From an uncultured Ignavibacteria bacterium (GTDB lineage: Bacteria > Zixibacteria > MSB-5A5 > CAIYYT01), in contig CAYXUL010000004.1 in assembly GCA_964468475.1 (NCBI GenBank), positions 1,811 to 63,490 of the forward strand: DNA of 61,680 bases, in the 5' to 3' direction. The notes beneath the pieces were generated by a model. The model searched no databases, was not told where the DNA came from, and saw nothing but the letters and a program-made list of their open reading frames with translations. Each line of letters starts with the position of its first letter. Position 1 is the first letter of the stretch. Made by a program: the position numbers and the translations under genes. Below, one piece after another: positions 24,327-56,030 of this stretch.

Positions 24327-24390
24327 AACCTAAGGCTGGCACTTTATCGCCGCTTGACAGGCTGCATTTCGTTCCCGATTCTAAAAGCTT

Positions 24391-25143
24391 ATGTCCAACA
24401 ATAAGGCAGATCGGTACGGAGGAGCGCGCTTCCCGGAAACTCGACATTCCGCGCTGCGTGCGATTAAGAGTGGAGCCGGCAAACAAAAGCGGCTCGCGCT
24501 GGCAGTGATTACTTCAGCCTATTGGCCGGCAGTGTACAAATACCTGCGGTTGCGATGGCATCGCGATCCGGAGTCAGCCGCTGACCTGACACAATCGTTC
24601 TTCTTAAGTGCCCTTGAGAAGGATTACTTCGCTGACTATGACCCCGAGAAAGCGCGATTCCGCACCTTCATTCGACTCTGTGTTGATCGTTATGTGGCCA
24701 AGTTCGACCGCGCTGCGTCAAGGCTGAAGCGCGGTGGTGATGCAGAACATCTCTCGCTGGACTTTGCCGGGATTGAAGCTGAAATGAGTCGAGGTGCCGC
24801 CAACCCTGAATCTCCGGAAGCGTTTTTCGAAGCCGAGTGGATGCGCACACTGCTGGAGTCCTCGATCGAGCAACTCAAGGCGGAGGCCACAGCAAAGGGA
24901 AAGGGAATACCTCTGCAGGTTTTCGAGCAGTACGATCTCGAGCCGGCAGGAGGCGACGAACGTCCAACGTACCGGGATTTGGCGGAACGACACAGCGTCT
25001 CGGTGGAGACAATTACTAATTATCTCGCCGCAATGCGCCGCGACTTCCGACGCATAATCCTGGAACGCCTGCGGGAGATGACGGCAAATGAAGAGGAGTT
25101 TCGTGTGGAGGCGAGAGTCGTCCTGGGGGCAGATCCTGAATGA
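24391..25143 (+). CDS. sigma-70 family (ECF-like) sigma factor
   Basis: Region 2-like DLTQSFFLSALEKDYF...FRTFIRLCVDRYVAKFDR...KRGG. Region 4-like YRDLAERHSVSVETITNYLAAMRRDF. The linker between them is unusually long. Confidence 0.7.
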   Translation: MSNNKADRYGGARFPETRHSALRAIKSGAGKQKRLALAVITSAYWPAVYKYLRLRWHRDPESAADLTQSFFLSALEKDYFADYDPEKARFRTFIRLCVDRYVAKFDRAASRLKRGGDAEHLSLDFAGIEAEMSRGAANPESPEAFFEAEWMRTLLESSIEQLKAEATAKGKGIPLQVFEQYDLEPAGGDERPTYRDLAERHSVSVETITNYLAAMRRDFRRIILERLREMTANEEEFRVEARVVLGADPE

Positions 25144-30016: not shown

Positions 30017-30034
30017 TGAAAGGCAAGCGCGCAA

Positions 30035-37157: not shown

Positions 37158-39139
37158 CAGCGATCACCTTCTTTCTTTGCCGGTTCGGTGTGGCAGGCGT
37201 CGCACATCCTCTCAGAGAAAGGTGCGTGGCTGTTGCTGAGCATTAGACCACGATCCTCGGAAGCATGCGGATCGTGGCACTTGCGGCAGTCAATTTGTGA
37301 GCCGGTCAATCCCAGGTGTTTGTCTTTGAAGGCGGAATCATCGCCATCGTGACAGTCGAGGCAGGTTGCCGGAACGTCCTGTATCAGCAGTGAAGCATAT
37401 TCGCTCGAATGGGGCTGGTGACAGGTGCTGCACTCTTCCTCGGCGGGTGGATGCGCCTTATAGTTTGCCATCATCGTGTCAATGTCAACGTGGCAATTAA
37501 GGCAGAGACGTGGCTGTTTATCGAGCAGGAGATTGCCCAGCTTTCCCGAATGAGGCGTATGACATTCGGTGCAATTGCCTTCCTCCACCGGAGCGTGCAT
37601 GCTTGTTGTTGCGGCCGGTTCGACGATGTCATCATGACACGTGCCGCACAGTTCTTTGGGGGTAGCTGTAAGCAGATTTGGCACTTCGCCGGCGTGGACG
37701 ACGTGACAGATATCGCAATTTCTTTCCTTGAAGGGGGGATGCTGAATGATTGCGAGGCTATCGGCGTAGAGATCGCTGTGACATTTTTCGCAGAGATCAT
37801 TCTTTGCCGCGCGTAGCAGTGGAGCCGTCTGTGAAGCGTGCGGATTGTGGCACTCTACACATTGTCCCTGCTTAATCGGCATATGCACGCTCTTCTCGGC
37901 GAGCCAATCCACGCCCTCGTCGTGGCAATCCCCGCAAAGTTCCGACTGGGGCTTCTTGATAAGATTCGCATACTGCGAACCATGTGGTTTATGGCAATCC
38001 GTGCACTCACCGTCAACGAATGGCGGGTGCGTGCTGGGGAAATCCATTGCTTCTGCTTTGTCGTCATGACAGGTGAGGCACAGCTCTTTGCTGTCAGCTA
38101 CCAATAGCATCTTTTTGGCCATGCCATGAGCGTTGTGGCAGGTGCTGCAATCCTCCTCGGCGGGTGCGTGGCGTGATGCCATTACCAGCTCGTCCTGAAC
38201 ATCACTGTGACACTCAAGACAAAGTTGCTTCTCCGGTTCGATCAACAGCGCGTTTTCTTTCGATCCGTGCGGGTTGTGGCAGCTGGTGCAACTGCCCGCC
38301 TCGACTGGTGCGTGGCTACCCTCGGGAGCAACATCAGCCTTGTCGTGGCAGGTCAGACAGAGCGCATCGGCATCATCAGTCAGTTCAAAAGGCGTGGCAG
38401 AGTCGGGCGCATTGTGGCAACTTTCACACTCGCCACCTTCAACGGGCGCGTGTATTGATGCCCGGAACAGGAATTTTGAATCTGATGAGTGCGGCGAATG
38501 GCACTTGCCACAATCCTGATCTTCCAGGGCGTATCCACCGTGCGCCTGCTTGTAGTCGGCTGGTTGATGACAATCGCGGCATAGATCATTAGCAGGCTTC
38601 TTCAGTAAGCCGGCGTATGCACTGCCGTGGACTTCGTGACAGGCAAAGCAGTTGTCCTTCATTGGCTCATGAACAAACTTACCCTCGAATTCCTTGCGAT
38701 CGTGGCAGTCGAAGCATATCTCCGACGCTGTCTTCTTCAGAAGCGCTTCATTATCTGAAGCGTGGGGGTCGTGGCACTTCTCGCAGCGGCCCTGTTTCGC
38801 AGGCGCATGAATGACACTGGCGTCCATGCCCAGTTTGGCCTTATCGTGGCACTCGTAGCAGAGCTGGGCGCCGCTCTCCTTGAGCCGCAGCATTCCTACC
38901 AGTCCATGCGGTTTGTGGCAGGCCACACAGTCTTTGTCGCCGAACGGTTTGTGTTTGTTGGAGCCCGGGAAGTCCTTTACGTCATGACACTCGGTGCAAT
39001 TGCCCTTTGATGAGAAGCGCTTGCCACGTTTGATCTGACCGCTTGCATCCGAAGTAAGGAATATCAGCGTAGCGGCGCAGATGAGCAGCACCAATAGAGG
39101 GAGTGAGTTGCCAACCCATCTGAGCTTACCAGACCACAT
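37157..39139 (-). CDS. multiheme c-type cytochrome, 26 CxxCH motifs (13 tandem diheme units)
   Basis: I counted 26 CxxCH. The start is set at ATG 39139 (MWSGKLRWVGNSLPLLVLLICAATLIF signal/anchor). The stop overlaps the next gene's ATG (TGATG). Confidence 0.95.
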   Translation of the reverse strand: MWSGKLRWVGNSLPLLVLLICAATLIFLTSDASGQIKRGKRFSSKGNCTECHDVKDFPGSNKHKPFGDKDCVACHKPHGLVGMLRLKESGAQLCYECHDKAKLGMDASVIHAPAKQGRCEKCHDPHASDNEALLKKTASEICFDCHDRKEFEGKFVHEPMKDNCFACHEVHGSAYAGLLKKPANDLCRDCHQPADYKQAHGGYALEDQDCGKCHSPHSSDSKFLFRASIHAPVEGGECESCHNAPDSATPFELTDDADALCLTCHDKADVAPEGSHAPVEAGSCTSCHNPHGSKENALLIEPEKQLCLECHSDVQDELVMASRHAPAEEDCSTCHNAHGMAKKMLLVADSKELCLTCHDDKAEAMDFPSTHPPFVDGECTDCHKPHGSQYANLIKKPQSELCGDCHDEGVDWLAEKSVHMPIKQGQCVECHNPHASQTAPLLRAAKNDLCEKCHSDLYADSLAIIQHPPFKERNCDICHVVHAGEVPNLLTATPKELCGTCHDDIVEPAATTSMHAPVEEGNCTECHTPHSGKLGNLLLDKQPRLCLNCHVDIDTMMANYKAHPPAEEECSTCHQPHSSEYASLLIQDVPATCLDCHDGDDSAFKDKHLGLTGSQIDCRKCHDPHASEDRGLMLSNSHAPFSERMCDACHTEPAKKEGDR

Positions 39140-39176
39140 ATCAATATCCTTTCTCACCACTCCCCGAGTCCTTTCC

Positions 39177-40811
39177 CTACCGGCTCTCACCCAGGTAGCG
39201 GTCAATGGCCTTGTCGAAGTAAGTGATCTCAGAGTGATCCTTCAGCACTGCGAGTGCCTTGTCGAGAAGGCTGTTGAATTGGCGTTGAAACATGATCTGC
39301 CGAATTGCGAGTTCGACTTCATCAAGTGACTTGAGTCGGCCCTGCTTCTTGTCAAGCAACCTGAAGATTATCCAGCCATCGGAGGTTGGAAAAGGACGAC
39401 TGGATGCCCCAATTTGCAGGGAGTCGAGATTGTCACGGATTTCCTCCGGAAACGCATTGAGCGTTGTCCAGTCGGTCTTTTCCATCACGCGCGGATCTCC
39501 GGTGACGAAGCGATCAGTCACGTAGTCGAAGTCACTGCCATCCTTAAGCAGTTGATAAGCGCTGTCTGCGCCGGCTTTGTCAGCGATGATGATACTGCGA
39601 AGTTGTAGCTTGCCCGGCTCACGGAAATCATCCTGGTGCTCGTTGTAGTATTTGGTGAATTCATCGCGGTTGAATGTTATCTGCGAGACGACGGTTTCCT
39701 TGAGGTAGATCTCCACCAGGGCGCTATCGCGAGTCTTGTCAAGCGCCGCGACAACTTTCGGGTCATTCTCAAGACCTGCGGCAACCCCTGACTGCAGTAG
39801 CGCCTGCTGTTGCAGCCACTGATCGATTGCTGCAGTCACAAGCGAATCCTTTGGGGCATTGGCGGCGTTCATCGCCAGCCGGGCTGTGGCCAGTCGCAAC
39901 TCGCTGTCAGTGAGCTTGCCGGTCTCACCGATGGTAGCGACGACATCATTGGTACCGATAAGGAATGTTGAATCCAGGACCGCCTCAGCATCAGAAGCAA
40001 TTGCCTTCGCGCGTTCGTTGTTGCGAGTGACTCCCAGTTGCTGCTCCAGGGAATCGACAAACGCCAGCCAATCGGCCTTTTGCTTATTGATTTTAAGCAC
40101 GCTGCGAATGTAGTTTTGCAGAGACGGCAGCTCTGTCTCGTCGGCGGGCGTTACCTGATCTACACGCATGAGCACGTAGGCATCATGGTAGGGAAACGGC
40201 CCGATCAACTGACCTTCTTTGGGGTCAGGCAGGTGAGTCCTCAGTTCATTCTCAATCTCTGCATAGTACATTAAACTGTGCGCGCCGCCCTGATAGCGGT
40301 GCACGTCGACTGAATTGGTCTTTGCGAGACTGTCCATCGGCGCTCCGGCGGCGATCATCTGCCTCAGGGAATCCGCTTTGCTACGGCTCAAAGTCGCAAT
40401 AGTTCTGATCTGAACTTTGAAGTACTTCTTGTCAAAGTAGTCCTTGATCTCGTCGTCGCTGACCTTTTTGTTAAACTTGTAATAGTTTTTCGCAAAACAC
40501 CGCTCGACATTCTTATCGCGTTCCCGCTCCATGAACTTCAGGAACGAGTCTTCGTCGGCCATACCGATAGCATTGGCTTCCTGTATGATGAGCCTGTCAT
40601 TTACGAGCTTATCCACGAGTTTGCGATAGTCAAATTTCATTTTCGAGTTGTTGCTCATAGAATCGTGAATCGTGGAAAAGATATCGTCGACGTCCGTTGT
40701 CGTGATCGAATCGCCGTTGACTACAGCCAGCACCTCCTGCGCCAGCGCTCTGCTACCGTCGACTATGAGCAAACCGAGGAGCAGTGTGAGTAAAATCCTG
40801 AAGCCTTGCAT
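39177..40811 (-). CDS. SurA-like periplasmic chaperone / parvulin-type peptidyl-prolyl isomerase
   Basis: The start is set at ATG 40811 (MQGFRILLTLLLGLLIVDGSRALA). The SurA_N-like opening is VLAVVNGDSITTTDVD. There are two rotamase-like segments (QIRTIATLSRSKADSL..., LQLRSIIIADKAGADSAYQLLKDGSDF). Confidence 0.75.
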   Translation of the reverse strand: MQGFRILLTLLLGLLIVDGSRALAQEVLAVVNGDSITTTDVDDIFSTIHDSMSNNSKMKFDYRKLVDKLVNDRLIIQEANAIGMADEDSFLKFMERERDKNVERCFAKNYYKFNKKVSDDEIKDYFDKKYFKVQIRTIATLSRSKADSLRQMIAAGAPMDSLAKTNSVDVHRYQGGAHSLMYYAEIENELRTHLPDPKEGQLIGPFPYHDAYVLMRVDQVTPADETELPSLQNYIRSVLKINKQKADWLAFVDSLEQQLGVTRNNERAKAIASDAEAVLDSTFLIGTNDVVATIGETGKLTDSELRLATARLAMNAANAPKDSLVTAAIDQWLQQQALLQSGVAAGLENDPKVVAALDKTRDSALVEIYLKETVVSQITFNRDEFTKYYNEHQDDFREPGKLQLRSIIIADKAGADSAYQLLKDGSDFDYVTDRFVTGDPRVMEKTDWTTLNAFPEEIRDNLDSLQIGASSRPFPTSDGWIIFRLLDKKQGRLKSLDEVELAIRQIMFQRQFNSLLDKALAVLKDHSEITYFDKAIDRYLGESR

Positions 40812-40815
40812 TAAT

Positions 40816-41946
40816 CTACCTCTGCACCGTTTCGTGTTGAATAGTCTTGTTGCTGGAGACTCCCGTGCGCCGTTCCCGCACGAGCCGCTTCCACATCGTC
40901 TCCACCAGTGATTGCGTTGTCCTGCCGATTGAATATTCTCTCCCCGAGCCGAACAGGGCGTTGACCGTGGCGCCGTTTCGCTGGTCGTTGACAGCAGAGA
41001 GTACAACTCCGCTCTGGGGGTCGGTGAGACGCAGACTCAAGCCGACTACCGGCCCCGCCTGGGAAACTCGGCCCCGTAACGGCAAGAACTCAAAAACTGT
41101 GCCGCTCACCAAAGCAGTGACATTCAGGCTGTCCGACAGTTCTTTCATGCCAACCTCGGTTGCCGATCCTATATAGAGCTGCCGGCTGCGGGTCAAAATG
41201 CGAGTCACATCACCGGGCTCAGCGACCGGGTATCCCAGCTGCCATACCTCGGCAAGTAGCAGATCTGATACCACGTCGCCCGCGGTCAGATAAAGTGTCG
41301 AATGATCGCAGGGGATTACCGCGAGCTTGCCGCTCTGCAGCAGCTTTCTGGCCTGCTTGCTGACTTTCGGCACTTTGAAGTTTGAGCCGGCGAAATGAGA
41401 ATCAAAATCCTTCATCAGCTCCCGAATTACTCTCGATGTTACTTTGCTCATTGAAGACGTCTCACCAATCCCCAGAAGCCCGCCGTAATCTTCTCCCGCT
41501 GCCGAGACGCACTTGGCCCAAACGACTTCCAGGGAGCGGCAGTCGTAGACCCTCAGGCAGAGTGACAATTCGGGTAGCTCTCCCGGTTGGTAGATTTCGA
41601 TTGCGCCGGTGACAACGAATCTGACACCGAGCCCTTGATTCAGTTCAGACGCTGCCACGGAGTTAACCACTCCCACGAGTCGCAGCCTATTCGAGCGCAT
41701 GAAGTCTCTGAGTGAATCACCGGTAATTAGATTACAGCGTTGCTCCAACTCGGACTTCACCGCGGATTCAACCGAATCGCGGGCTTCATTGAATTCGCTG
41801 TAGTTGGCCAACGGCACCAGCGCAAACCTTGTGGCAGCACTCTCAATTGTTGCTTTGGCCCCGGGGGCAAAAACAAGAATAAATAGAGCACATATCATCA
41901 AGATTGCGCTGTAGTCTCTTAGCATTGTTCTTGTGTCGTCAGCCAT
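40816..41946 (-). CDS. periplasmic/OM-associated protein with two tandem CsgG/LpoB/TolB-N-like domains
   Basis: 376 aa with an N-terminal hydrophobic anchor. Two repeats follow the pattern (F/L)A(L/V)(V/I)P...(spacing)...(V/A)L(V/I).G(T/A)(V/I), matching the neighbouring lipoprotein. Confidence 0.55.
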   Translation of the reverse strand: MADDTRTMLRDYSAILMICALFILVFAPGAKATIESAATRFALVPLANYSEFNEARDSVESAVKSELEQRCNLITGDSLRDFMRSNRLRLVGVVNSVAASELNQGLGVRFVVTGAIEIYQPGELPELSLCLRVYDCRSLEVVWAKCVSAAGEDYGGLLGIGETSSMSKVTSRVIRELMKDFDSHFAGSNFKVPKVSKQARKLLQSGKLAVIPCDHSTLYLTAGDVVSDLLLAEVWQLGYPVAEPGDVTRILTRSRQLYIGSATEVGMKELSDSLNVTALVSGTVFEFLPLRGRVSQAGPVVGLSLRLTDPQSGVVLSAVNDQRNGATVNALFGSGREYSIGRTTQSLVETMWKRLVRERRTGVSSNKTIQHETVQR

Positions 41947-41961
41947 CTTTTGACTTCAGTC

Positions 41962-42585
41962 TCAGTCGATTAGTGTATCGATAGTTTTGCGCACGCAACG
42001 TCGCGCAACTTCGCTATAGGAGCGCTGTTCCGTTCCGAAGAGCGATGACAAAAACGTGCGACTGCCCTCAGTGTCGGTAGCCGACCACACGATTTGTCCT
42101 TCCTCAGTCTCCATCATGCGGACATCGAGAGTTACAACTGTGGCCGGGCCGCCACTCGAGCGATTATTGGTCGACTCATTGACAGTGCCGATAATAAGTG
42201 CCTGCACGCCCAGCGTCTTACCCAGTTCCTTAATCTGATCCACCGTGAGCAGGTCTTTGCGCGGCAGCGTATATTTTCCCAGCGCCTTGATTACTTCTCC
42301 CGGCTCCACAATGTCGAATGCTTCCGCTGCCAGCAACTCTGTCATAAACAAGTGCGTCAGTCGTGGTCCTGCGCCTTGATCATTGGAAAGATTTTCAAAC
42401 GGAACTATCGCGACCCGTTCTACATAGGCGAAATTGTAATCCCGGTTCAGGAACACTGTTGGTTTGACTGTCGAGCAGCCGGAGAGCAAAAGTGCAAAAA
42501 GAACAGCAAGCGAGATGACTGCCGGGAGAGTCGCGTGAACAGTCTTCGCGGTAAGTCGGAGTTGATTCTTAGTAGTGTATTTCAT
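41962..42585 (-). CDS. lipoprotein, DUF799/LpoB/CsgG-like fold suspected
   Basis: Lipobox LLSGC. VAIVPFENLSNDQGAG ... LGVQALIIGTVNE ... VTLDVRMMETEEGQIVWSA is the pattern shared by CsgG, LpoB, PelC-like and TolB-N-like ring lipoproteins. Confidence 0.65.
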   Translation of the reverse strand: MKYTTKNQLRLTAKTVHATLPAVISLAVLFALLLSGCSTVKPTVFLNRDYNFAYVERVAIVPFENLSNDQGAGPRLTHLFMTELLAAEAFDIVEPGEVIKALGKYTLPRKDLLTVDQIKELGKTLGVQALIIGTVNESTNNRSSGGPATVVTLDVRMMETEEGQIVWSATDTEGSRTFLSSLFGTEQRSYSEVARRCVRKTIDTLID

Positions 42586-44696
42586 TAGAATCCCGTCCTG
42601 ATTCCGATCCTGAAGGACATCGTTGAAACTCCACCGGTGCCGGTAAGATCATTTTCTTGAACTGTACCGGTAAGCGTGGTACGACGCGTCAGGCTATAGT
42701 CAATTTGCGCTCCGTAACGCTCAGTACGAGAACCGGCATCGAAACTAAGCAGATAGGCGCTGGCGCTGGTGCTGACTTTTGGAGTCATGCGCCAGGTGAA
42801 GATAAAGTTCTGTGTCAGGCTGCGAACCAGAGCGTCCTCGATACTGTTGATATTGCCGCGCAGTTGCATATTTTCGCTGATCATGTAGGTGAACCCCAGC
42901 AGGTACTCTTTTCTGACGATCAGTCCCACTTCGTTCTCAGTGGTCTCACGGTAGCGATAGCTGGCCTGGCCTTCAAGCCACTGAGTCAGGCTGCCGATCA
43001 GGTAGGCCCGATATGACCAGCTATCCAGCTGTCGCGCGACCTGATTCAGCCTCGTTCGATTCAGTCCCACTTCCTGATTTAACTTCAGTTGAGGAAATAG
43101 ATCCGCACCCGCTCTTACAAAAGCGTTGTAGAACTCTTCCGACCGGAAACTGCTGATATAGTTGGCTCTGGCGTACGCTGAAGCCGTCAAATCGAGAGTT
43201 CTGATCGGAAGATACTCAAGCGAGTACCCTCCCGAGGTCGAGCGGTTTACTTCGATCATTGTGTTCTTGATATCGAGGAGGGCGAGCTCGCCTTGAATGG
43301 TCTGATGAAGATTGTCACTGATCTTATGACGAATGGATGAATTGAAGTAAGCCTCCCTGCGTCCCGGATCCTGCGCATTGCCCGGCTCGTCCCGAAGTGT
43401 GACATTTACATTGGACGACAGGTTACTTGAAAGGTGCACGGTGTTAGTAAGATCGATTTCATGGAAGAAGTTGTCGAGGGACAACTTGCTGGTTTGATTC
43501 ACATGCACAAATGCCTGCATTTCGGTTACAAACACCGAGTCGCTCAAATTGAAGCCGCTATTGACTACCTTGATGTAGCGTGTGGTAGTCTTATCGAATG
43601 AGATTTCATAGCGACTGAAACCGGGGCTGAAAACCGACTGGGCCCTACCCTGGCTTTGCCAGAACACGGCATCCTCCGAAGTAAATACCGTCCAGGCTAC
43701 CGAGTTGTCCGAAGGGACATCTGTGTAGATGTAGAGCATGTCGACGTCGCGCGCCGAACCAAGATCGGCGCCAATATTCCAGCCAGTGTTCCCGTCGCCG
43801 ATATTTATCGGCGGTACCGTTTCGCTGGTAACATCGCCGTCTGCCAAAGCGAGCACCGTATCAAGACCACCGGTCTCAGGCGACTCGTCACGAGCCGCCA
43901 GCCCGGCGAAAATCGGGATTTCACGTGGGATCGAGCCACCTGTCAGGTTCTCGTCCGTCTGTACCCGATAGTCGCCTCGGTAGCTAATCGACGACCGTAC
44001 GCTGCCGCCAATCCAGTTGAGTGATTGCTGTAACCGCAGTGAGTGATGCGTTGTCGAGCTGCGCAACTCGCGGGACCAGTCATCGGTTACGCGTCGTTTG
44101 AATGAATATTGGACCGAGGATCGCAGGGAATTATAGCCCGTCCCCAGTTCCAGAATTTGATCGCGGGTATCACGGTCGCTGCGATCTACCTGATTGTATC
44201 TTTTCTCATACCCCAAGTTGGCCTTCACATAGGGATAATTGGGAACCTGCGACTTGATTGTAACGCTGGCGATTTGCGTAACCAGTTCGATGCTTCGGTC
44301 GTTACTCTTGGTTTCCTGGTACTGACCGAGGCCGGTAACGGAAAAGGCCCGCTGCCGCCAATAGGCTTCAACGCTGGGCTGCAATTCAGAACGCCAGTTG
44401 TTTGGCCCGTCGCTCTGAGTAACGCCCACGTTGTAGTAGCGCAAGGAGGTGCGTCCCAGCAGATTCTTGCTGAATTGTTGCTGCCAGCCCAGCACGTACT
44501 CCTGGTCGAGATTCTCTCGTTTCTGGACATCGGTTTCTGACTGAAAGAAGCCGACTCGCAGCCGTCCCGATAGATTCTGTGAAATCCGTGCTTGTACTGA
44601 ACCGGCAAGAAGGAGGGTGACCGCGAAAGCGGATATGGCAGTGGTAGGCAGTCCCGTCCAAACCTTCTGTCGTTTTACTCGTTTCAATTCTCTCAA
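42585..44696 (-). CDS. large outer-membrane beta-barrel protein with an inserted F5/8-type-C (discoidin)-like domain
   Basis: 703 aa with a TTG start and a signal peptide ending in SVQA. Amphipathic beta-strand periodicity at both ends. C-terminus is ...FRIGIRTGF (terminal Phe). The central insert is residues ~255-398. The stop overlaps the next ATG (TAATG). Confidence 0.8.
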   Translation of the reverse strand: MRELKRVKRQKVWTGLPTTAISAFAVTLLLAGSVQARISQNLSGRLRVGFFQSETDVQKRENLDQEYVLGWQQQFSKNLLGRTSLRYYNVGVTQSDGPNNWRSELQPSVEAYWRQRAFSVTGLGQYQETKSNDRSIELVTQIASVTIKSQVPNYPYVKANLGYEKRYNQVDRSDRDTRDQILELGTGYNSLRSSVQYSFKRRVTDDWSRELRSSTTHHSLRLQQSLNWIGGSVRSSISYRGDYRVQTDENLTGGSIPREIPIFAGLAARDESPETGGLDTVLALADGDVTSETVPPINIGDGNTGWNIGADLGSARDVDMLYIYTDVPSDNSVAWTVFTSEDAVFWQSQGRAQSVFSPGFSRYEISFDKTTTRYIKVVNSGFNLSDSVFVTEMQAFVHVNQTSKLSLDNFFHEIDLTNTVHLSSNLSSNVNVTLRDEPGNAQDPGRREAYFNSSIRHKISDNLHQTIQGELALLDIKNTMIEVNRSTSGGYSLEYLPIRTLDLTASAYARANYISSFRSEEFYNAFVRAGADLFPQLKLNQEVGLNRTRLNQVARQLDSWSYRAYLIGSLTQWLEGQASYRYRETTENEVGLIVRKEYLLGFTYMISENMQLRGNINSIEDALVRSLTQNFIFTWRMTPKVSTSASAYLLSFDAGSRTERYGAQIDYSLTRRTTLTGTVQENDLTGTGGVSTMSFRIGIRTGF

Positions 44697-44712
44697 AAGT
44701 CTCCACTTAACA

Positions 44713-44742
44713 GGGCACCCGACCCGACTGGGTCGGGCGCCT
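44713..44742 (-). other. GC-rich intercistronic stem-loop immediately downstream of the omcS-like gene
   Basis: GGGCACCCGACCC-gact-GGGTCGGGCGCC(T). An 8-bp perfect core is extended by 3-4 bp after one mismatch. It sits in the 111-nt gap before the barrel gene and has no clear U-tract. Confidence 0.5.
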
Positions 44743-44807
44743 GTTTGTGCCCTAAAACGATTTCAAGGTCAGAAGGGCTATAAGATTCGGTAACTTCGGC
44801 TCAGCCG

Positions 44808-45863
44808 TTAGAACGGCATCTCGTCGCCGGCATCCTTCACGTGGCACTTGTTGCACAGTGAGCGCTGGTTCGGGTTGTTGTATGGATCCGGGATCGCATA
44901 CGAACCGGACTCAACTCCATCCTCGTCGAGGAAGGTGACATTCATATCCCAACGGGTAGCGTCGGGAGCTGATGTCGCGTGTGCACGGTGACAGGTGATG
45001 CAGGAAACCTGGCTGCTAGCCGTCGGTCCGGCGGTAGACGTAGTCGTATTGGCCGGGTCTTCAAACGGAACCTCTGCAAGATACGCCGTAGCCTGAGTCC
45101 CACCGGTCTGGTCCACAGTGCCGTTGTACAGGTTATAAGCATTGGCAATAGTGCCGCCTATAGTCACACCGGACGGGTGGATCAGCTTGGTGCCGTTGTT
45201 GTGGAAGTCGCCGTGGCAGTTTCCGCACCACGCACTCATACCACCTTTGTAGGCGGTGTGGCTGGTCTGGCTCTCCGAACCGGAGTTAATGCTGATTCCC
45301 TCGGCATCGGGAGCCGCATTGGTGAAGGAATACAGGCCGTCCTGAACCGAGGCAATGCCATAAAGCAGACGGAAATTGGTGTTTCCGTGCGGGTCGTGGC
45401 AACTGGTGCACTCAAGGTTGGCAGCCGGGAAGGTACCCCCCGGAGCCGTAGTCAGTGTACCATCGGGGCCGGAACCCATGCTGGGAGCGTTGACATTATG
45501 GCCGGCAAAGGAACCTGGAATAGGATTGCTTGCTCCGGCATGGCCGTCGTTAATGTTGTCTTCAGAAAGAAAGACAAAATTACCGCCACCCTTCTCCGGG
45601 GGCGGAGCCAGCGGGTCAGCTCCCCACACGGCACCATGACTGGTGGCATGGCAGGAGAGACACACGTCGGAAGCAGAAGCATACTTCAGCAAATAAGCAT
45701 TGCCGTTCGGGTTAGACGCATCCACTAATGCGCCGTCTTGGCTGTTGTGCATCGTATGACAGCCGCTGCAGTGGGCTACGCCGGCATCGTGGAACCCCAT
45801 CGCTACGCCGCTGAAGAGAATCGGTAGCGAGAGAGCTACTGCGATGATTAGAAGCTTACGCAT
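44808..45863 (-). CDS. omcS: OmcS-family hexaheme c-type cytochrome (candidate filament/nanowire subunit)
   Basis: 351 aa with 6 CxxCH. Blocks are collinear with my recollection of G. sulfurreducens OmcS. These are G|FHDAGVAHCSGCHTMHNS (OmcS FHSGGVAECEGCHTMHNS), TLTTAPGGTFPAANLECTSCHDPHG (OmcS TLTTAPGGTFPANQLHCSSCHDPHG), GMSAWCGNCHGDFHN, GTQATAYLAEVPFED, VSCITCHRAHAT and QRSLCNKCHVKD. Confidence 0.8.
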   Translation of the reverse strand: MRKLLIIAVALSLPILFSGVAMGFHDAGVAHCSGCHTMHNSQDGALVDASNPNGNAYLLKYASASDVCLSCHATSHGAVWGADPLAPPPEKGGGNFVFLSEDNINDGHAGASNPIPGSFAGHNVNAPSMGSGPDGTLTTAPGGTFPAANLECTSCHDPHGNTNFRLLYGIASVQDGLYSFTNAAPDAEGISINSGSESQTSHTAYKGGMSAWCGNCHGDFHNNGTKLIHPSGVTIGGTIANAYNLYNGTVDQTGGTQATAYLAEVPFEDPANTTTSTAGPTASSQVSCITCHRAHATSAPDATRWDMNVTFLDEDGVESGSYAIPDPYNNPNQRSLCNKCHVKDAGDEMPF

Positions 45864-45925
45864 AGTTAAAAAACCTCCGAGATTTACTCACTTAAAAGAG
45901 CTAGAATAAAAGGGGTTAAGCTTGG

Positions 45926-47002
45926 TTAGCGCATCACCTCCTTTGCAGAATTTTCTGGCAGTTGTGGTGGAAGAGAACTTTGAACAGGTCCATTTTCTGA
46001 GGTGCTATCCGGCCCATTCTCCAGCGAATCAAGCCGCTGCCTGATGAAATCCGGTAAGTCACAAACCTGAACGCGATTCATGAAGCGCTGCGAAATATAC
46101 AAACGCCCTTGGTTATCATGATCAATATAGGCAGGATGGTAAAAATCCCCCGGTTTCACTCCCATACCGCCGAACTCGCCCAGGAACTGCCCATTGGTTG
46201 AATAACACACTACTGCAAATCGATGTTTGTCCAGAACGGCAGCGATCTTGTGGTCAATGATCGTTACGTCGCTGGGGAAATTCAGCTCACCCGCCAGGTT
46301 TCCCCGTATTCCGAACGCCCGCACAAACTGGCCGCCTACGTCGTAGACGTAAACCTGTCCGAGCATCGGCGCCGGAAGGTAGAGGTGGTTGCCATCAATC
46401 TCGGGCTGTCCCAATATGGATTCCCTCCTTGACTTCTCGGTCAGGTCTCCCAGGACAGCAAATTGAGATTGGAATTTCCCTTCGGTATTGATCACGACAA
46501 CACTGAGATCAGCCCCGTTGACAACATAGATCAAATCGTTTTCTGAAATATTCATGGAAAGCGGCGCAAACCGGAAGCCCTCCGGAGTGTCGGAGAGTTC
46601 CAGCTGACCCAGCAGAAGTCCGTCATAGTCTACTTTGAAAATATGTGCGCCATCGGCCGTTGTACCGAGAACATAGATGTACCCGCGTGAATCAACTACC
46701 ACCGAGCCCACGTTGCGAAAGACATCTTTGCCGCCAAATTCGAACAGGTAAACACCGGCAGTATCTAAAACAACGACACGATTATTGCCCGGATCTGTCA
46801 CAAAGACTTCGCCGGCGCGCCGGTCAATAAATACATTCTCAGGCCTCAGGAAACCGTTGCCGGCCCCCGGCATCTCCAGCAAGCGCACGAATTCGGTCCT
46901 CACCGACAGGTCATCCCTGCTCTGTGCAAAGCTGGGGGCCGAACAGACAGTAACTGCCAAAAGCAAGGCAGCCACCGAAATGGACAAAGAATCGAGGTCC
47001 AT
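45926..47002 (-). CDS. NHL-repeat beta-propeller protein, secreted
   Basis: The start is set at ATG 47002 (MDLDSLSISVAALLLAVTVCSAPSFAQ). It has repeated NHL-type blades (VFVTDPGNNRVVVLDTAGVYLFEFG, IYVLGT..., LYISQRFMNRVQV). Confidence 0.8.
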   Translation of the reverse strand: MDLDSLSISVAALLLAVTVCSAPSFAQSRDDLSVRTEFVRLLEMPGAGNGFLRPENVFIDRRAGEVFVTDPGNNRVVVLDTAGVYLFEFGGKDVFRNVGSVVVDSRGYIYVLGTTADGAHIFKVDYDGLLLGQLELSDTPEGFRFAPLSMNISENDLIYVVNGADLSVVVINTEGKFQSQFAVLGDLTEKSRRESILGQPEIDGNHLYLPAPMLGQVYVYDVGGQFVRAFGIRGNLAGELNFPSDVTIIDHKIAAVLDKHRFAVVCYSTNGQFLGEFGGMGVKPGDFYHPAYIDHDNQGRLYISQRFMNRVQVCDLPDFIRQRLDSLENGPDSTSENGPVQSSLPPQLPENSAKEVMR

Positions 47003-47094
47003 CCGTGGGCAGAACTTCCGTTGTGTATGATTACTAAGCCAACCCATGCTGTCTGTTAAAAAGTCCTCAAGCGAAACCACCTATTCGCTTTACA

Positions 47095-47112
47095 TAGTGA
47101 ATTGATTCACAA
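47095..47112. promoter_or_regulatory. Rex/CRP-type palindromic operator candidate, TAGTGAA-TTGA-TTCACAA
   Basis: It matches TTGTGAA-N4-TTCACAA at 13 of the 14 arm positions. It lies ~100 nt upstream of ATG 47002 and 95 bp (centre to centre) from the other site. Confidence 0.5.
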
Positions 47113-47189
47113 GGAAAGTTCAAAAAAACAGCAGAACGCCCTAAAAAACTAATCTATAAAGGCTAACGTGGAAATCGCCACCTAACTCG

Positions 47190-47207
47190 TTGTGATTTTT
47201 TTCACAT
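47190..47207. promoter_or_regulatory. Rex/CRP-type palindromic operator candidate, TTGTGAT-TTTT-TTCACAT
   Basis: The core TGTGA-N6-TCACA is perfect (47191-47206). It lies ~196 nt upstream of the NHL/omcS-like operon start (47002, minus strand). Confidence 0.55.
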
Positions 47208-47447
47208 GAGCAGGTAAAGCTTGAGCTGCAAGGCGAGACTATTTTGTACAATGAACTAACCCTGAAATCGACTTATATTCGTTCGGCGATATGATAGACA
47301 ATTAGCTCGGGAAAGCAAGCGAAAAAAAGTACCTTTTTGTATCTTTTTTGGAATTCTGCTTTAATCAGGAATGATTTGTCCCTGTAATTTGCGAAGTTTC
47401 AAGCGCTTCTGTTTTGAAGTCAGGGCGTGTGGAGAGCTGATGAGTCG

Positions 47448-48284
47448 CTACCGACTCGACATTGCGAAGCCGTCCGAGCCATCGTGCCCCATATCGTGGC
47501 AGTCGGTACAAAGGCCTGCTTGAATGCCTTTGCTGAGGAGATACTTCTCTCCTGAAATCAGTGAGTGACACGTTTGGCACTCGATTTTGCCGTCGATCGT
47601 CACGACAGTGCTGGGGATCTGGTCGCGCAGCTTCAGCGTCGAGCCCGGCTTGCGATAGCCAGGGATCAGCTCGATCGAAAATGGGTGAGTTGCTGACACG
47701 TGAAAGCGTGGAAAATCCTCAAGTTGACTGGCATGAGCAGGAAGTCGACCGTCACGATTGTGGCAGGAAAGGCAGAATTCTGACGGGTTTGCTGCAAAAT
47801 TGCCTGTCGTGTCGCTATGGATAATCTCCGCGGCCAGCCTGTGTCCGGGACTGACTTCAGGAGAACTGGAATCACGGTGACAATCGAGACAAATGTCGAC
47901 ACCGCGAATCGCTACCGCAAGCGCTCCGGTGGTCTCGCCGATAACCAGTTTCTCCGGATGATGGAACGAATGGCAGGTCAAACAATTAGCGTTTGCGCCG
48001 GAGTGAAATGGTCCGGATTTTCCCTCGGTCAGGTTGCTGGTCTGGTGACAGCTCAGGCAATCCCTGCTGCTGGGCATGGCACTGAGGTCATCAGCACTCC
48101 CGGACATGCTGGCCTTGCTGGCCTGCATTCGGTGACAGGTACGGCACTCGACAGCGTTGTGCGCAGGAACCGGATTTTCTTCCGCGTCGCCTTCCGGCAG
48201 CCCCCAACCAAAATAGAGAAGCCCGATCATCAAGATCAGAACCGCAGCAGCAACCAGGGAACGAGAATCAAGCTGTAGGCGCAT
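47448..48284 (-). CDS. membrane-anchored heptaheme c-type cytochrome
   Basis: 278 aa. N-terminal TM is SLVAAAVLILMIGLLYFGWGL. I counted 7 CxxCH. Confidence 0.9.
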   Translation of the reverse strand: MRLQLDSRSLVAAAVLILMIGLLYFGWGLPEGDAEENPVPAHNAVECRTCHRMQASKASMSGSADDLSAMPSSRDCLSCHQTSNLTEGKSGPFHSGANANCLTCHSFHHPEKLVIGETTGALAVAIRGVDICLDCHRDSSSPEVSPGHRLAAEIIHSDTTGNFAANPSEFCLSCHNRDGRLPAHASQLEDFPRFHVSATHPFSIELIPGYRKPGSTLKLRDQIPSTVVTIDGKIECQTCHSLISGEKYLLSKGIQAGLCTDCHDMGHDGSDGFAMSSR

Positions 48285-48477
48285 ATTAGGTTTATCGTCA
48301 ACGCCATAAACCGCTATCAGTCTTCACCGATTTTGTCTGTGTCGAAATGAAAAGCACAAGGGGGTGAAATTTGCACACTGCTATGGAATTGAACGGGAGC
48401 TCACAGCCAGGGCGGGTATCGCATTCGCTGTGAAGTTGTGGTGATCGACTCAGGCCATTCCGGCAGCGCAAGGCAAA

Positions 48478-49200
48478 CTATGATTGGTCGCGATCACTTT
48501 CCTGAGCCCCTTCCGGTACGAACTTATATCCGGCTCCCCGCATCGTGAGAATGTACCTGGGGTTGGCAGGGTCGGGTTCGAAAATCTTGCGCAGCCGCAG
48601 GATGAAATTATCAATCGTGCGGGTAGAGGGATAAACATGATACCCCCAGACAGCATCGAGAATCATATCGCGTGAGACGACTTCATTCTCGTGCTCCGAG
48701 AGAAACTTCATCGTCATACATTCCTTCTGCGACAGCTCGGTCTCCCCGCTGGGTCCAACCGCCTGGTAGGTCTTGAAATCCACCCAATTATCGGCAAAGA
48801 CATAGCGCGACTCATCTTTCTCCACCGTGCTGTACCACACTTGTCGTCTGAATATCGCTGCCACCCGCAGCAGCAGTTCCTGCAGATCAAACGGCTTGGT
48901 GAGATAGTCATCGCCGCCGGAAAGGAAGCCTTCAACGCGATCCGATTGCCGATCGCGCGCTGTCAGGAAGAGAATCGGTATTCTTCCGCCGGCTTTACGA
49001 ATTTGGCGGCACACTTCCAGGCCGTCTTTGCCGGGAATCATGATATCCAGGATGATCAAATCGAATTGACCGTCACGATACATTTGCAGCGCTGCGTTAC
49101 CGTCAGTGGCAACCCCAACATCATATCCTTCCGCCTCAAGATTCAATACTAAACCCTCGGCGATATGTTCTTCGTCCTCAACTACCAGAATCTTCTTCAT
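48478..49200 (-). CDS. OmpR/PhoB-family response regulator
   Basis: The start is set at ATG 49200 (MKKILVVEDEEHIAEGL). Receiver Asp is in LIILDIMIPGKDG. The winged-helix end is MRGAGYKFVP. Confidence 0.9.
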   Translation of the reverse strand: MKKILVVEDEEHIAEGLVLNLEAEGYDVGVATDGNAALQMYRDGQFDLIILDIMIPGKDGLEVCRQIRKAGGRIPILFLTARDRQSDRVEGFLSGGDDYLTKPFDLQELLLRVAAIFRRQVWYSTVEKDESRYVFADNWVDFKTYQAVGPSGETELSQKECMTMKFLSEHENEVVSRDMILDAVWGYHVYPSTRTIDNFILRLRKIFEPDPANPRYILTMRGAGYKFVPEGAQESDRDQS

Positions 49201-49225
49201 GTTGTTCTCACAAGTCCTCAGCCGG

Positions 49226-50509
49226 CTAAGCGGCGTTCTCACTCGGCAGTTTAATCACGAAAGTAGTTCCTTTATCTTGCCCCTCCGATTCGATCATCAC
49301 GCTACCCCCATGCTCCCGCACAATCTGCTTGACGAGGAACAAACCGATCCCGGTACCCTTTACCGAACGAGTCTTTTCCTCACCGGTCCGATAGAAGCGT
49401 TCGAACACTTGCTCCTGCTCATGCCGAGCAATACCAACGCCATTGTCGCTGAACCGCAACTCACAGCCGGAATTGGCTCGCTGCAGAGACACTGACAAGC
49501 TCCTGCGTCCCGGTGGAGAATATTTGATGGCATTATCCGCCAGCGCTGTAACTACCCGGCGCAGGGCGTGGTAATCTGTTTTCGCATATATATCGGGTTC
49601 GATGGCTGTAGTCAACTTCAGATCGTACCTTTGAAACATCGGTTTCAGTTCGTCGAGATACTCCTGAAGGTCGGCGCTTAGGTTGGTGCGTACACGTTTC
49701 ATCTTTCGCGACTGCTGGCTCAACCGACCCGCTTCCAGCACGTTGTCAACCAGTCCCTCGAGTCGCTGACAATCTTCAACCATCTTGGGAATGAAAGTCT
49801 TTGATTTCTCTTCAGGAACCCGACCACTCGAAAGCGTTTCCAGGTAAAGTTTGATTGAGGCCACCGGTATCTTCAGCTCATGCGTCACCGCCTGGATGAA
49901 ATTCTCCTGTTGCTGCTTCATTCGCTCGGTCTGTCTCAGAGCGCGGAAAATCATAAATGCGCCCAGCAGCATCAGCAACACGAAGAAGGAACCTTCGGAT
50001 GCAAACATTATTACGTGCCGGTGTGCCTCATCTTCCAGCTTACCGAGTACTTTGGGCCGGAGTTTCAAATCCTGCGGGCTAAACGGGTCATCTTTCAGCT
50101 CACCTCTCAACGCAGATTCATTAACTGCGAGGTCCGGCGCAAACCGCTCAAGCAGGGTCGCTGGATAGTCCCGATCCAGCCACACCAGCGCACTGCCGCC
50201 ATCGATAGTGTTGACATGCAGATACCAGGTCGTGTCGATTTTGCCCACATTCCAGACAACCTCCCCCTCCTTATTCATTACCGTGGCGCCGAGCACCGGG
50301 CGATGAAGCGATTCAGATGACAAATTGGAGGTTCGCAGCCGATCCTGACCGGCGAGATACACAGAATATGTGGGGCGTAGCTCATTGTATTCCTGGTTCA
50401 GGTGGAAGGCTGTGATAGCCGCTGTTTGGCCGGCCTGCTGCTTGTGGAGTTTGAGCTGCTCTTCAGCGGAGTTCACCTGAAAATAAATCCACCACGAAAT
50501 CTGCCCCAT
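49226..50509 (-). CDS. sensor histidine kinase (HisKA + HATPase_c) with a periplasmic sensor domain
   Basis: H-box AVTHELKIPVASI, N-box DNAIKYSP and G-box GTGIGLFLVKQIV. The first TM helix appears to start upstream of the first ATG (see findings). Confidence 0.9.
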   Translation of the reverse strand: MGQISWWIYFQVNSAEEQLKLHKQQAGQTAAITAFHLNQEYNELRPTYSVYLAGQDRLRTSNLSSESLHRPVLGATVMNKEGEVVWNVGKIDTTWYLHVNTIDGGSALVWLDRDYPATLLERFAPDLAVNESALRGELKDDPFSPQDLKLRPKVLGKLEDEAHRHVIMFASEGSFFVLLMLLGAFMIFRALRQTERMKQQQENFIQAVTHELKIPVASIKLYLETLSSGRVPEEKSKTFIPKMVEDCQRLEGLVDNVLEAGRLSQQSRKMKRVRTNLSADLQEYLDELKPMFQRYDLKLTTAIEPDIYAKTDYHALRRVVTALADNAIKYSPPGRRSLSVSLQRANSGCELRFSDNGVGIARHEQEQVFERFYRTGEEKTRSVKGTGIGLFLVKQIVREHGGSVMIESEGQDKGTTFVIKLPSENAA

Positions 50510-53827: not shown

Positions 53828-53873
53828 AGTACTCGCTATCCGTTGGAACTATTTTGGAATCGAGGTGAGCATA

Positions 53874-56019: not shown

Positions 56020-56030
56020 GGTGCGCAAAC

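Follow-up and report, generated by a model that had tools for sequence, protein, structure and literature searches.

The window, that is the whole stretch of 61,680 nucleotides analyzed here, contains an ATG-initiated open reading frame that spans exactly 44808..45863 on the minus strand and is preceded by a strong GGAGG ribosome-binding site. It encodes a 351-amino-acid precursor with six CxxCH heme motifs, in order CSGCH, CLSCH, CTSCH, CGNCH, CITCH and CNKCH. The original prediction had counted six such motifs without giving the strand, and all six are confirmed, as is the observation of an OmcS-family hexaheme cytochrome at this position. It had overlooked that the gene is embedded in a cluster of eleven co-oriented genes (35928..50509). 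The features of the locus are the following, listed from the first gene of the cluster to the last.

49226..50509 and 48478..49242, minus strand: two-component system, a histidine kinase and an OmpR-type response regulator (Pfam)
47448..48284, minus strand: heptaheme c-type cytochrome with an N-terminal hydrophobic anchor (seven CxxCH; Pfam cytochrome c7/paired CXXCH)
45926..47080, minus strand: secreted NHL-repeat/6-bladed beta-propeller protein (Pfam DUF5128/NHL; the true start may be 47002)
44808..45863, minus strand: OmcS-family hexaheme c-type cytochrome (ORF, motifs, OmcS match at E 4e-43, AF2/Foldseek)
45795..45863, minus strand: predicted Sec signal peptide of the hexaheme, residues 1-23 (seen in the sequence)
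45747..45749, minus strand: codon of mature His16 (precursor H39, in CSGCH-TM-H), aligned with OmcS His16
44988..45002, minus strand: fifth heme motif CITCH (precursor C288-H292), equivalent to OmcS C328/C331/H332 by alignment numbering
44711..44743, minus strand: GC-rich hairpin of ~15 bp directly after the hexaheme stop codon (folding of the 111-nt spacer)
42585..44696, minus strand: 703-aa predicted outer-membrane beta-barrel, OscE position (weak Pfam Porin_4 and F5_F8_type_C_2)
41962..42585, minus strand: 207-aa LpoB/CsgG/PelC-like lipoprotein, OscF position (weak Pfam CsgG and LpoB; NCBIfam LpoB)
40816..41946, minus strand: 376-aa secreted protein with two PelC/LpoB-like halves, OscG position (weak PelC, E 0.006-0.014)
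39177..40811, minus strand: 544-aa periplasmic SurA-like chaperone with PPIC-type prolyl isomerase domains, OscH position (Rotamase_2 4.8e-26, SurA_N)
37157..39139, minus strand: 26-heme c-type cytochrome of 660 aa, OscI/GSU2495 position (26 CxxCH, 13 paired-CXXCH domains)
35928..37157, minus strand: 16-heme c-type cytochrome of 409 aa, OscJ position, final gene of the cluster (16 CxxCH, Pfam)

Membership of the hexaheme in the OmcS family, as originally predicted, is supported by the sequence match, the predicted fold and the conserved ligand set. A phmmer search of the PDB with the hexaheme returned 6EF8, a structure of OmcS (GSU2504; PDB 6EF8/6NEF), with an E value of 4.1e-43 and 151 bits, and no other credible match. 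Three collinear stretches were aligned (query 24-163 to OmcS 1-151, 175-327 to 200-367 and 330-344 to 393-407), with identical residues at 136 of 300 aligned pairs (~45%; 43-45% overall), and the protein shares 76 positions with at least 80% of 108 OmcS-type proteins. The six motifs, collinear in the two proteins, align with OmcS C9/C12/H13, C47/C50/H51, C140/C143/H144, C239/C242/H243, C328/C331/H332 and C400/C403/H404, and the blocks around hemes 1, 3, 5 and 6 are nearly identical. The stretches quoted earlier as matching OmcS, FHDAGVAHCSGCHTMHNS, TLTTAPGGTFPAANLECTSCHDPHG, MSAWCGNCHGDFHN, VSCITCHRAHAT and QRSLCNKCHVKD, were all found and are collinear with 6EF8 in the phmmer alignment. The cleavage site was placed by alignment with the mature OmcS N-terminus and by the invariant F-H, and the mature proteins do share this F-H start, as claimed.

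The mature hexaheme has 328 residues and OmcS 407, a shortfall of 79 residues and not the 55 or so first estimated. The main deletions correspond to OmcS 152-199 (48 residues, 11 here) and OmcS 368-392 (25 residues, 2 here); both loops are almost wholly gone, as are smaller insertions. These two deletions, the 79 residues in all and a median identity of 38% to OmcS-type proteins are observations that count against a nanowire. The hexaheme is not a strict orthologue of OmcS: it lies in a separate clade of compact proteins (the compact clade) on a long branch, is 79 residues shorter and is 43% identical to OmcS, which is itself 70% identical to its nearest sampled relative. The hosts differ too, Desulfuromonadia for OmcS and Zixibacteria for the window protein.

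In order to obtain a structural model, we ran AF2 on a diverse alignment of 123 sequences that included representatives clustered at 50% identity. The resulting model, a monomer without hemes, had a pLDDT of 91 and a pTM of 0.89, while 36 closely related sequences gave an unusable model (pLDDT 41). Foldseek of this model against the PDB returned 6ef8_A (E 5.9e-21; TM-score 0.82 query-normalised, 0.67 target-normalised) and no other match. In this model the hexaheme has the OmcS fold. Pfam and NCBIfam contain no OmcS-specific model and give generic matches only (paired CXXCH and cytochrome c3/c7), so one may ask whether the resemblance arises by chance or from the motifs shared among multiheme cytochromes, or whether the ORF is even expressed. 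We consider the probability of this negligible. The similarity extends well beyond the CxxCH motifs, with most of the 136 identities outside them, and together with the phmmer E value of 4e-43 and the TM-score of 0.82 this refutes a chance or motif-only similarity. Moreover, the hexaheme belongs to a family of at least 4,486 homologues (960 representatives at 50% clustering), has the strong ribosome-binding site described above and is 85% identical to its orthologue at a related locus (L078).

We then considered the neighbouring genes. Shen et al. (2025, Cell Chem Biol 32:239) are said to have described an osc nanowire biogenesis cluster in the GSU2505-GSU2493 region. The reference osc clusters used here were the loci of Geomonas oryzae (L068) and Citrifermentans bremense, and genes were given their Osc letters according to their order in comparison with Geomonas and according to the literature, not via the G. 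sulfurreducens proteins. In a contig scan with OmcS-derived patterns, the best match was 73% identical and G. sulfurreducens was not among the results. From the kinase through to the prolyl isomerase, each gene is matched significantly by BLAST to the G. oryzae gene in the corresponding position. The kinase and regulator are 37% (1e-43) and 28% (3e-24) identical to the Geomonas upstream pair, a placement that recurs in many loci, and the NHL propeller is 30% identical (E 4e-28) to the same-position gene of G. oryzae and is present at this position in most loci. At the OscE, OscF and OscG positions next to the hexaheme, which are those of the channel-type components, the Geomonas matches are a 744-aa protein (E 3e-8), a 197-aa GNA1162/LpoB lipoprotein (29%, E 1e-27) and a 365-aa protein (26%, E 3e-18). 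The barrel carries in its centre an F5/8-type-C/CBM32-like domain (CBM32 match at E 0.034) that its Geomonas counterpart also has, and it is 65% identical to that of L078. The 207-aa lipoprotein also matches the PelC chains 5T10/5T11 at E ~0.1, and a Pfam search of the 376-aa protein returned no family. The OscH position is filled by the SurA-like chaperone (E 2e-15 to a 598-aa Geomonas protein; start refined against L078), and the OscI and OscJ multiheme positions are filled downstream. The 26-heme cytochrome, which has the heme number of GSU2495 (PMC12977616), is 36-41% identical to the same-position gene of many loci, and the 16-heme gene occupies the same position in L078-L083 and in many OmcS-type loci.

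By these sequence comparisons, the cluster is a near-complete, collinear homologue of the Geobacteraceae osc (omcS-companion) biogenesis cluster. The two have in common a two-component system, an NHL propeller, a hexaheme, an F5/8-C-like barrel, an LpoB/GNA1162 lipoprotein, a protein of ~365 aa, a SurA/PPIase chaperone, a 26-heme cytochrome and a further multiheme cytochrome, all pairwise homologous, with identities of 22-37% to the Geomonas proteins. They differ in that osc clusters contain two to four hexaheme paralogues whereas the window cluster contains one, and in that the latter has an extra membrane-anchored heptaheme upstream, a candidate electron donor to the system that is conserved in the compact-clade loci L078, L081 and L082 but rare in OmcS-type loci. 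At the OscD position the window cluster also has no propeller of the YncE/lactonase type: the hexaheme and barrel genes lie just 111 nt apart, the NHL propeller lies upstream instead, and tblastn with the 465-aa YncE/lactonase-like lipoprotein of Geomonas found no match in the window. A propeller at the OscD position is present at the compact-clade loci L081-L083. As PMC13194489 reports from Shen et al. 2025, OmcS nanowires depend on the osc cluster for folding (by OscH), secretion (by OscEFG) and shape (by OscD).

The original prediction had put forward a nanowire subunit with some hedging, and this idea is strengthened because the gene is embedded in a collinear osc homologue. The hexaheme is the only candidate cargo, since it is the one hexaheme gene of the cluster. 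We think it probable that a bacterium of the phylum Zixibacteria builds an OmcS-type cytochrome filament with this protein as the only structural subunit. Export beyond the periplasm would follow solely from the neighbouring barrel and PelC-like genes. The signal peptide by itself indicates export to the periplasm only, as would suit a soluble periplasmic electron carrier whose neighbours serve an unrelated envelope function, for example polysaccharide or lipoprotein handling; PelC/LpoB/CsgG-like and CBM32-like similarities are indeed also found in polysaccharide export systems. However, no polysaccharide synthase was found among the cluster genes, the sole structural relative of the hexaheme is an extracellular filament, and the linkage between hexaheme and block is kept in more than 60 loci of at least five named phyla, which makes the soluble carrier improbable. 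The gene order with the 26- and 16-heme cytochromes is likewise found again in dozens of OmcS-type loci, spread over several phyla, and in six loci of the compact clade (L078-L083).

Twelve histidines are near-invariant among 123 diverse members of the family, six of them in the CxxCH motifs. The six others (H2, H16, H99, H136, H206 and H272 in mature numbering, aligned with OmcS H2, H16, H110, H147, H257 and H335) are each conserved in at least 98% of the compact clade, to which the window protein belongs, and of the OmcS-type proteins; they are conserved predicted distal ligands for bis-His ligation, the His16 equivalent included. Exactly twelve near-invariant histidines fit six bis-His hemes and leave no family-wide spare to replace H16. 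We take His16 to be the number of the OmcS cross-subunit ligand, and likewise assume the His332 numbering; our alignment numbering agrees. In OmcS, an N-terminal histidine ligates heme 5 of the neighbouring subunit (PMC7096707), and the CITCH motif at 44988..45002 is by alignment the counterpart of the heme that accepts it. The histidine of HTMH proposed earlier to play this part is indeed kept, as precursor H39 or mature H16, in alignment with OmcS His16. Its description as filament-specific holds in part: the residue is conserved, but family-wide (100% in the compact clade, 98% in OmcS-type proteins) and equally so in the second and third hexaheme copies of multi-copy loci. As a feature of the whole family, His16 is necessary but does not by itself identify a filament former. 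The Geobacter counterparts of these extra copies are not known as wire formers (PMC12977616). The N-terminal arm (residues 21-40) is the second most conserved segment, with 61% cross-clade identity, and the least confident structured part of the AF2 monomer (pLDDT 64), both of which are expected if the arm packs on a neighbour.

Two further histidines, H179 and H198 in mature numbering, are invariant in the compact clade and could in principle re-wire heme ligation. They and the absence of a propeller at the OscD position are further observations that count against a nanowire.

A large barrel beside multiheme cytochromes also marks porin-cytochrome conduits, and the family assignments of the barrel are weak. 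The hexaheme could then be a non-polymerising cell-surface cytochrome serving as the extracellular terminal reductase of such a conduit, in which the ~700-aa barrel would be the porin, the 26- and 16-heme cytochromes the periplasmic wire, and His16 would bind the heme of a partner protein or be unused. The absence of the two OmcS loops from the compact protein would fit this explanation. Among the Geobacter paralogues OmcS alone is proven as a wire and the GSU2501-type hexaheme is without a demonstrated filament, homology alone is said to over-predict nanowires, and the osc cluster may have begun as a plain secretion system (PMC12977616). The ligand count, however, gives heme 5 no family-wide intramolecular sixth ligand, and the arm that bears His16 is among the most conserved segments. 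A PelC/LpoB-like pair with a SurA-type chaperone is more in keeping with machinery for export and assembly than with a static conduit, and experiments have linked a homologous cluster to the production of OmcS wires. We thus regard the conduit as an unlikely explanation, though one to be taken seriously.

Under the filament reading that we prefer, the hexaheme would be exported by Sec and receive its hemes in the periplasm, where the chaperone at the OscH position would keep the loop-rich subunit competent for assembly. The barrel and the two PelC/LpoB-like proteins (OscE, OscF and OscG positions) would carry it across the outer membrane, and the subunits would polymerise head-to-tail outside the cell. 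As happens in OmcS, mature His16 on the N-terminal arm would reach into the adjacent subunit and provide its heme 5 with a sixth ligand, and this cross-ligation would yield a continuous chain of bis-His hemes. The membrane-anchored heptaheme and the 26- and 16-heme cytochromes may supply the base of the filament with electrons from membrane and periplasm, and the kinase and regulator may control expression of the cluster. Physiologically, such a filament would serve extracellular electron transfer, with minerals or partner cells as acceptors or donors; for OmcS itself, the physiological necessity of the wires is debated.

The host is indicated by a linked acetate kinase and by the nearest hexaheme homologues, which both point to Zixibacteria, in agreement with the non-Geobacter lineage suggested at first. 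This phylum, which is uncultured, has been linked before to iron cycling in the subsurface. The clade of the window protein is monophyletic, and its tightly conserved proteins, of ~350 aa, come from MAGs labelled Zixibacteria, Acidobacteriota, Gemmatimonadota and Eisenbacteria. Its internal median identity of ~70% is unusually high, in contrast to the surface cytochromes of Geobacter, which evolve fast. At L078, the 85% identity of the hexaheme points to purifying selection, the other structural proteins of the cluster being 49-72% identical. The compact clade may represent a distinct, minimal OmcS-type nanowire, with a 328-residue subunit devoid of large loops, polymerisation through His16 and heme 5 and, at this locus, no OscD; we put this forward tentatively and would not yet favour it. 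If it were true, the abundance of the clade in metagenomes would make it a major and so far uncharacterised wire type of sediments and aquifers, one that might also be nearer the ancestral form of the OmcS-type system.

Finally, we compared the hexaheme with other known systems. It resembles OmcS in the six conserved non-motif histidines including His16, in the F-H start and in its type of neighbourhood, and the GSU2501/OscC-type proteins in being the sole hexaheme and the nearest to the assembly block; some Geobacter genomes have only a GSU2501-type gene and the eight-gene block (PMC12977616). No assignment to either the OmcS type or the GSU2501/OscC type could be made, as bit scores to block-adjacent and OmcS-like copies showed no consistent preference (151 vs 167 at L017; 174-184 vs 152-172 at L004, L007, L013 and L019) and the compact clade branches outside both. 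For DA_402 of Desulfurivibrio alkaliphilus, an OmcS homologue outside Geobacter, a filament for iron-oxide respiration was proposed from AlphaFold and alignment (Nature 2025, PMC12545173). With its seven motifs, DA_402 reaches a TM-score of 0.56 to OmcS; the window hexaheme, with six motifs and 0.82, is structurally closer, but expression data exist for DA_402 whereas the window protein is known here from its sequence. In OmcE-type clusters, too, a filament cytochrome is accompanied by a large outer-membrane beta-barrel and by a lipoprotein with a beta-propeller, and cross-subunit histidine ligation is used as well; OmcE, however, is a tetraheme protein that resembles the hexaheme neither in sequence nor in fold, and no OmcE-like protein was seen in the window. 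OmcS/osc systems outside Geobacter have already been described as widespread, so the locus is less new than the original prediction implied, and the hexaheme is a good candidate for a non-Geobacter conductive filament, though not the first.

Long-range microbial electron transfer finds its best structural explanation in cytochrome nanowires, and the OmcS-type structures in the PDB all come from one Geobacter protein. The locus offers a minimal test case: its one subunit gene is accompanied by an assembly block that is full apart from OscD, by a dedicated regulator pair and by cytochromes that are candidates for feeding in electrons. Should the compact subunit polymerise, it would set the minimal sequence for an OmcS wire and reveal which loops OmcS can do without, bring Zixibacteria and the other phyla of the compact clade into nanowire biology on an experimental footing, and make a hexaheme with an osc block a better metagenomic marker than a hexaheme alone. 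If it does not, it would serve as a negative control indicating that His16 and the osc block are insufficient.

Concerning expression of the cluster, consensus scans for promoters and terminators around the hexaheme gene gave counts at background, and Rfam and tRNA scans of the whole window gave no matches. For the 111-nt spacer that follows the hexaheme gene, a folding energy of -47.1 kcal/mol (z -3.9) was computed. Its hairpin is conserved in L078 with a compensatory change from C-G to U-A, and other strong hairpins lie at the same position in L080. It is a candidate element that may stabilise or attenuate the transcript and so raise expression of the subunit over that of the assembly genes.

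The hexaheme gene lies on the minus strand (44808..45863), starts with an ATG nine bases 3' of a GGAGG ribosome-binding site and encodes a 351-aa protein with six CxxCH motifs. Pfam and NCBIfam returned generic multiheme matches only, because neither has an OmcS-specific model. When all PDB chain sequences were searched with phmmer, the sole credible match was OmcS, the nanowire subunit of Geobacter sulfurreducens (6EF8/6NEF; E 4.1e-43, 151 bits), aligned in three collinear stretches (OmcS 1-151, 200-367 and 393-407). The blocks that the original prediction had quoted as matching OmcS were all found in the ORF and are collinear in this alignment. Where the two proteins can be aligned, identical residues make up 136 of 300 pairs (about 45%), and since these identities lie mostly outside the heme motifs, a similarity restricted to CxxCH was excluded. 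That the likeness to OmcS arose by chance is poorly supported and extremely improbable. The N-terminus resembles a Sec signal peptide, and predicted cleavage between MRKLLIIAVALSLPILFSGVAMG and FHDAG would give a mature F-H N-terminus as in OmcS; these two residues are invariant within the compact clade, the group of ~350-aa proteins to which the hexaheme belongs. The mature protein has 328 aa vs 407 aa for OmcS, thus it is 79 residues shorter and not about 55 as initially estimated, the main losses being at OmcS 152-199 (48 aa reduced to 11) and 368-392 (25 aa reduced to 2).

HMMER, run exhaustively against 1.84 billion cluster representatives, identified 960 representatives of the family at E ≤ 1e-3, of which 375 reached ≤ 1e-10 and 102 reached ≤ 1e-30. 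AlphaFold2 reached a pLDDT of 41 with 36 close relatives and a confident model with a 123-sequence alignment including family representatives (mean pLDDT 91.0, pTM 0.89), the weak regions being limited to residues 1-10 (pLDDT 64) and the four C-terminal residues. With this model, Foldseek found a single match in the PDB, 6ef8_A (E 5.9e-21, probability 1.00), with a TM-score of 0.82 normalised to the query and 0.67 normalised to OmcS. Judged by this single match, the predicted fold of the hexaheme is that of OmcS, its sole representative among solved structures.

The hexaheme gene is the fifth, counting from a histidine kinase gene, of eleven co-oriented genes (35928..50509, minus strand).

Genes of the cluster, with identity and E-value against the Geomonas oryzae counterpart where tabulated
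49226..50509, minus: histidine kinase; 28% identity, E 3e-24
48478..49242, minus: OmpR-type response regulator; 37% identity, E 1e-43
47448..48284, minus: membrane-anchored 7-heme cytochrome
45926..47080, minus: NHL/6-bladed propeller; 30% identity, E 4e-28
44808..45863, minus: hexaheme; 33% identity, E 1e-59
42585..44696, minus: 703-aa barrel-like protein with an F5/8-C/CBM32-like insert; 32% over the shared central domain, E 3e-8
41962..42585, minus: 207-aa LpoB/CsgG-like lipoprotein; 29% identity, E 1e-27
40816..41946, minus: 376-aa protein; 26% identity, E 3e-18
39177..40811, minus: SurA-N + PPIC-type prolyl isomerase; 22% identity, E 2e-15
37157..39139, minus: 26-heme cytochrome
35928..37157, minus: 16-heme cytochrome

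Scanning genome contigs with OmcS N-terminus patterns yielded 77 reference loci, spanning Geobacterales, Desulfuromonadales, Nitrospirota, Acidobacteriota, Rokubacteria, Schekmanbacteria, Bacteroidota, Myxococcota and others. Despite the OmcS-derived patterns, the G. sulfurreducens locus was not found among these 77, the best match being 73% identical; this part of the reference genome may be missing from the contig collection or masked in it. A tblastn comparison with the window proteins showed that most of the 77 loci share this gene order, and in Geomonas oryzae significant matches to each tabulated gene, from kinase to prolyl isomerase, occupy the corresponding positions. By sequence comparison, the eleven-gene cluster is an omcS-companion (osc) cluster. 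The original prediction had described the context as unlike Geobacter; this holds for the lineage, but the cluster matching the Geomonas osc genes had been overlooked, only unrelated neighbours having been viewed.

According to the account of Shen et al. (2025) given in PMC13194489, OscH (a prolyl-isomerase chaperone), OscE/F/G (a channel) and OscD (a propeller) fold, secrete and shape OmcS nanowires. GSU2495 (OscI) is a 26-heme protein (PMC12977616). In the window, the 207-aa lipoprotein and the 376-aa protein (40816..42585, minus) are alike, and both weakly match LpoB/CsgG/FlgO profiles. The lipoprotein PelC assembles into rings that funnel a polymer towards a barrel in the outer membrane. 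Weak PelC matches were obtained for both window proteins (E 0.006-0.15; 5T10/5T11, 9H80), a weak hint that they have a role in export and may form a ring-shaped funnel beneath the barrel.

To compare heme ligands, we aligned 36 compact-clade members, 108 OmcS-type hexahemes (420-470 aa) from 77 genomes, and OmcS. Motifs 1-3 map to OmcS C9/C12/H13, C47/C50/H51 and C140/C143/H144, and motifs 4-6 to C239/C242/H243, C328/C331/H332 and C400/C403/H404. Outside the motifs, exactly six histidines reach a conservation of 98% or more in each group (OmcS H2, H16, H110, H147, H257 and H335), and the near-invariant histidines of the 123-sequence alignment are the same twelve, the number that six bis-His hemes require. 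Two further histidines, mature H179 and H198, are invariant in the compact clade. We take the distal ligand of heme 5 in OmcS to be His16, paired with His332, which fits the alignment numbering. The hexaheme retains both residues: mature H16 is encoded at 45747..45749, and the His332 equivalent lies in the CITCH motif (44988..45002). Between clades, only one segment is better conserved than the N-terminal block in which H16 lies. For heme 5 of OmcS, it is the adjacent monomer that supplies the distal ligand (PMC7096707, PMC9473688). The HTMH histidine, proposed earlier as filament-specific, is thus conserved, but where a locus has several hexaheme genes, H16 is equally conserved in the second and third of them; judged by this conservation, it is a family trait and therefore no discriminator of filament formers.

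The hexaheme is probably an OmcS-type filament subunit assembled by osc-like machinery. The data directly support the family and lineage to which it belongs, its predicted fold, its set of heme ligands and the homology of its cluster, whereas its export and polymerisation, the path of the electrons and the physiological role are inferred. On this reading, the machinery would export and assemble the subunits into a filament, mature H16 of one subunit ligating heme 5 of the next. The main rival, a non-polymerising surface cytochrome belonging to a barrel-based conduit, fits the published warning that OmcS itself is the only proven wire (PMC12977616); we consider it unlikely. A periplasmic carrier is poorly supported and very unlikely.

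The hexaheme's compact clade is monophyletic and sits on a long internal branch, with a median identity of 70% within the clade and of 38% (maximum 45%) vs the OmcS-type proteins. The clade is large: at least 4,486 homologues were found at E ≤ 1e-5, the best 120 all being of ~350 aa and 66-85% identical. Among the sources named for them are Zixibacteria, Acidobacteriota, Eisenbacteria and Gemmatimonadota, although these MAG labels may be imprecise. The core block is kept in 6/6 compact-clade loci examined (L078-L083). Three of them encode, between hexaheme and barrel and exactly as in Geomonas, a YncE/lactonase-type propeller of 465-478 aa at the OscD position (L081 11185..12621; L082 11191..12612; L083 11216..12613). 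It is absent from the window, where hexaheme and barrel are separated by a spacer only (44697..44807), and from L078, L079 and L080, which looks like a lineage-specific loss. The window also has one hexaheme gene, in contrast to the two or three carried by many OmcS-type loci.

Directly after the hexaheme stop codon, the 111-nt spacer (folding z -3.9) holds a strong GC hairpin of ~15 bp (44711..44743, minus). It is kept in L078, the nearest relative (11057..11175), with a compensatory C-G to U-A change, and the Gemmatimonadota-labelled L080 has different hairpins at the same spot (11054..11261). The hairpin suggests differential expression of subunit and machinery. Among the structural proteins of the cluster, the hexaheme has the highest identity to its L078 counterpart (85%, the others reaching 49-72%), in contrast to the fast evolution reported for Geobacter surface cytochromes (PMC12977616). 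Over all cluster proteins, identity is highest for the response regulator (91%) and the hexaheme and lowest for the heptaheme cytochrome (49%), followed by the 376-aa protein (57%).

The OmcS/osc system of the window is no conceptual surprise, because OmcS homologues outside Geobacter (PMC10954620), an osc machinery called widespread and ancient in the title of Shen et al. (2025), AlphaFold-based filament proposals for Desulfurivibrio OmcS-like proteins (PMC12545173), and iron-reduction and iron-oxidation genes assigned to Zixibacteria in metagenomic surveys (PMC8478452) have already been described. Its compact subunit, the single copy of the subunit gene and the absence of OscD nevertheless mark it as a variant worth studying by experiment.

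The window most likely comes from a Zixibacteria-phylum genome, which the hexaheme gene tracks; the named best matches of the acetate kinase (59117..60313, plus) are almost all Zixibacteria. Metabolism genes for MetH, MetF, CoA-transferase, acetolactate synthase, aldehyde dehydrogenase and acetate kinase (5444..10158, 13390..19387 and 59117..60313, plus) place the cytochrome cluster in a normal chromosomal setting with no obvious mobile element. In L081 (Zixibacteria HGW-1), a hemA, hemC, hemD, hemL, hemE and hemN-like set lies directly upstream of the cytochrome cluster (641..7331). A three-gene module (53865..57170, plus) lies about 8 kb from the osc-type cluster and encodes an HmcB/HybA-like 4Fe-4S protein with a TAT signal, a membrane subunit resembling HmcC/NrfD and a c-type cytochrome with 13 hemes. 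It is a likely quinone-pool oxidoreductase that could supply the osc-type system with electrons, a plausible link in an extracellular electron-transfer chain. A PAAR-motif protein (368 aa), a 1121-aa protein with a weak OmpA-like match only and a BamB/PQQ-like propeller (28910..33400, plus) may constitute a secretion-associated toxin/effector locus. The dockerin-like tails proposed earlier find weak support in a 950-aa beta-helix/NosD-like protein (10308..13160, plus), whose C-terminal dockerin-type match (E 7e-4, 20.1 bits) is below the Pfam cut-off of 22.9. The predicted sigma factor and kinase neighbourhood was found at 21753..26216 (plus), where two Ser/Thr kinase genes, the first encoding a fusion to TPR repeats (857 aa) and the second a protein of 358 aa, flank that of an ECF-type sigma factor of 250 aa.
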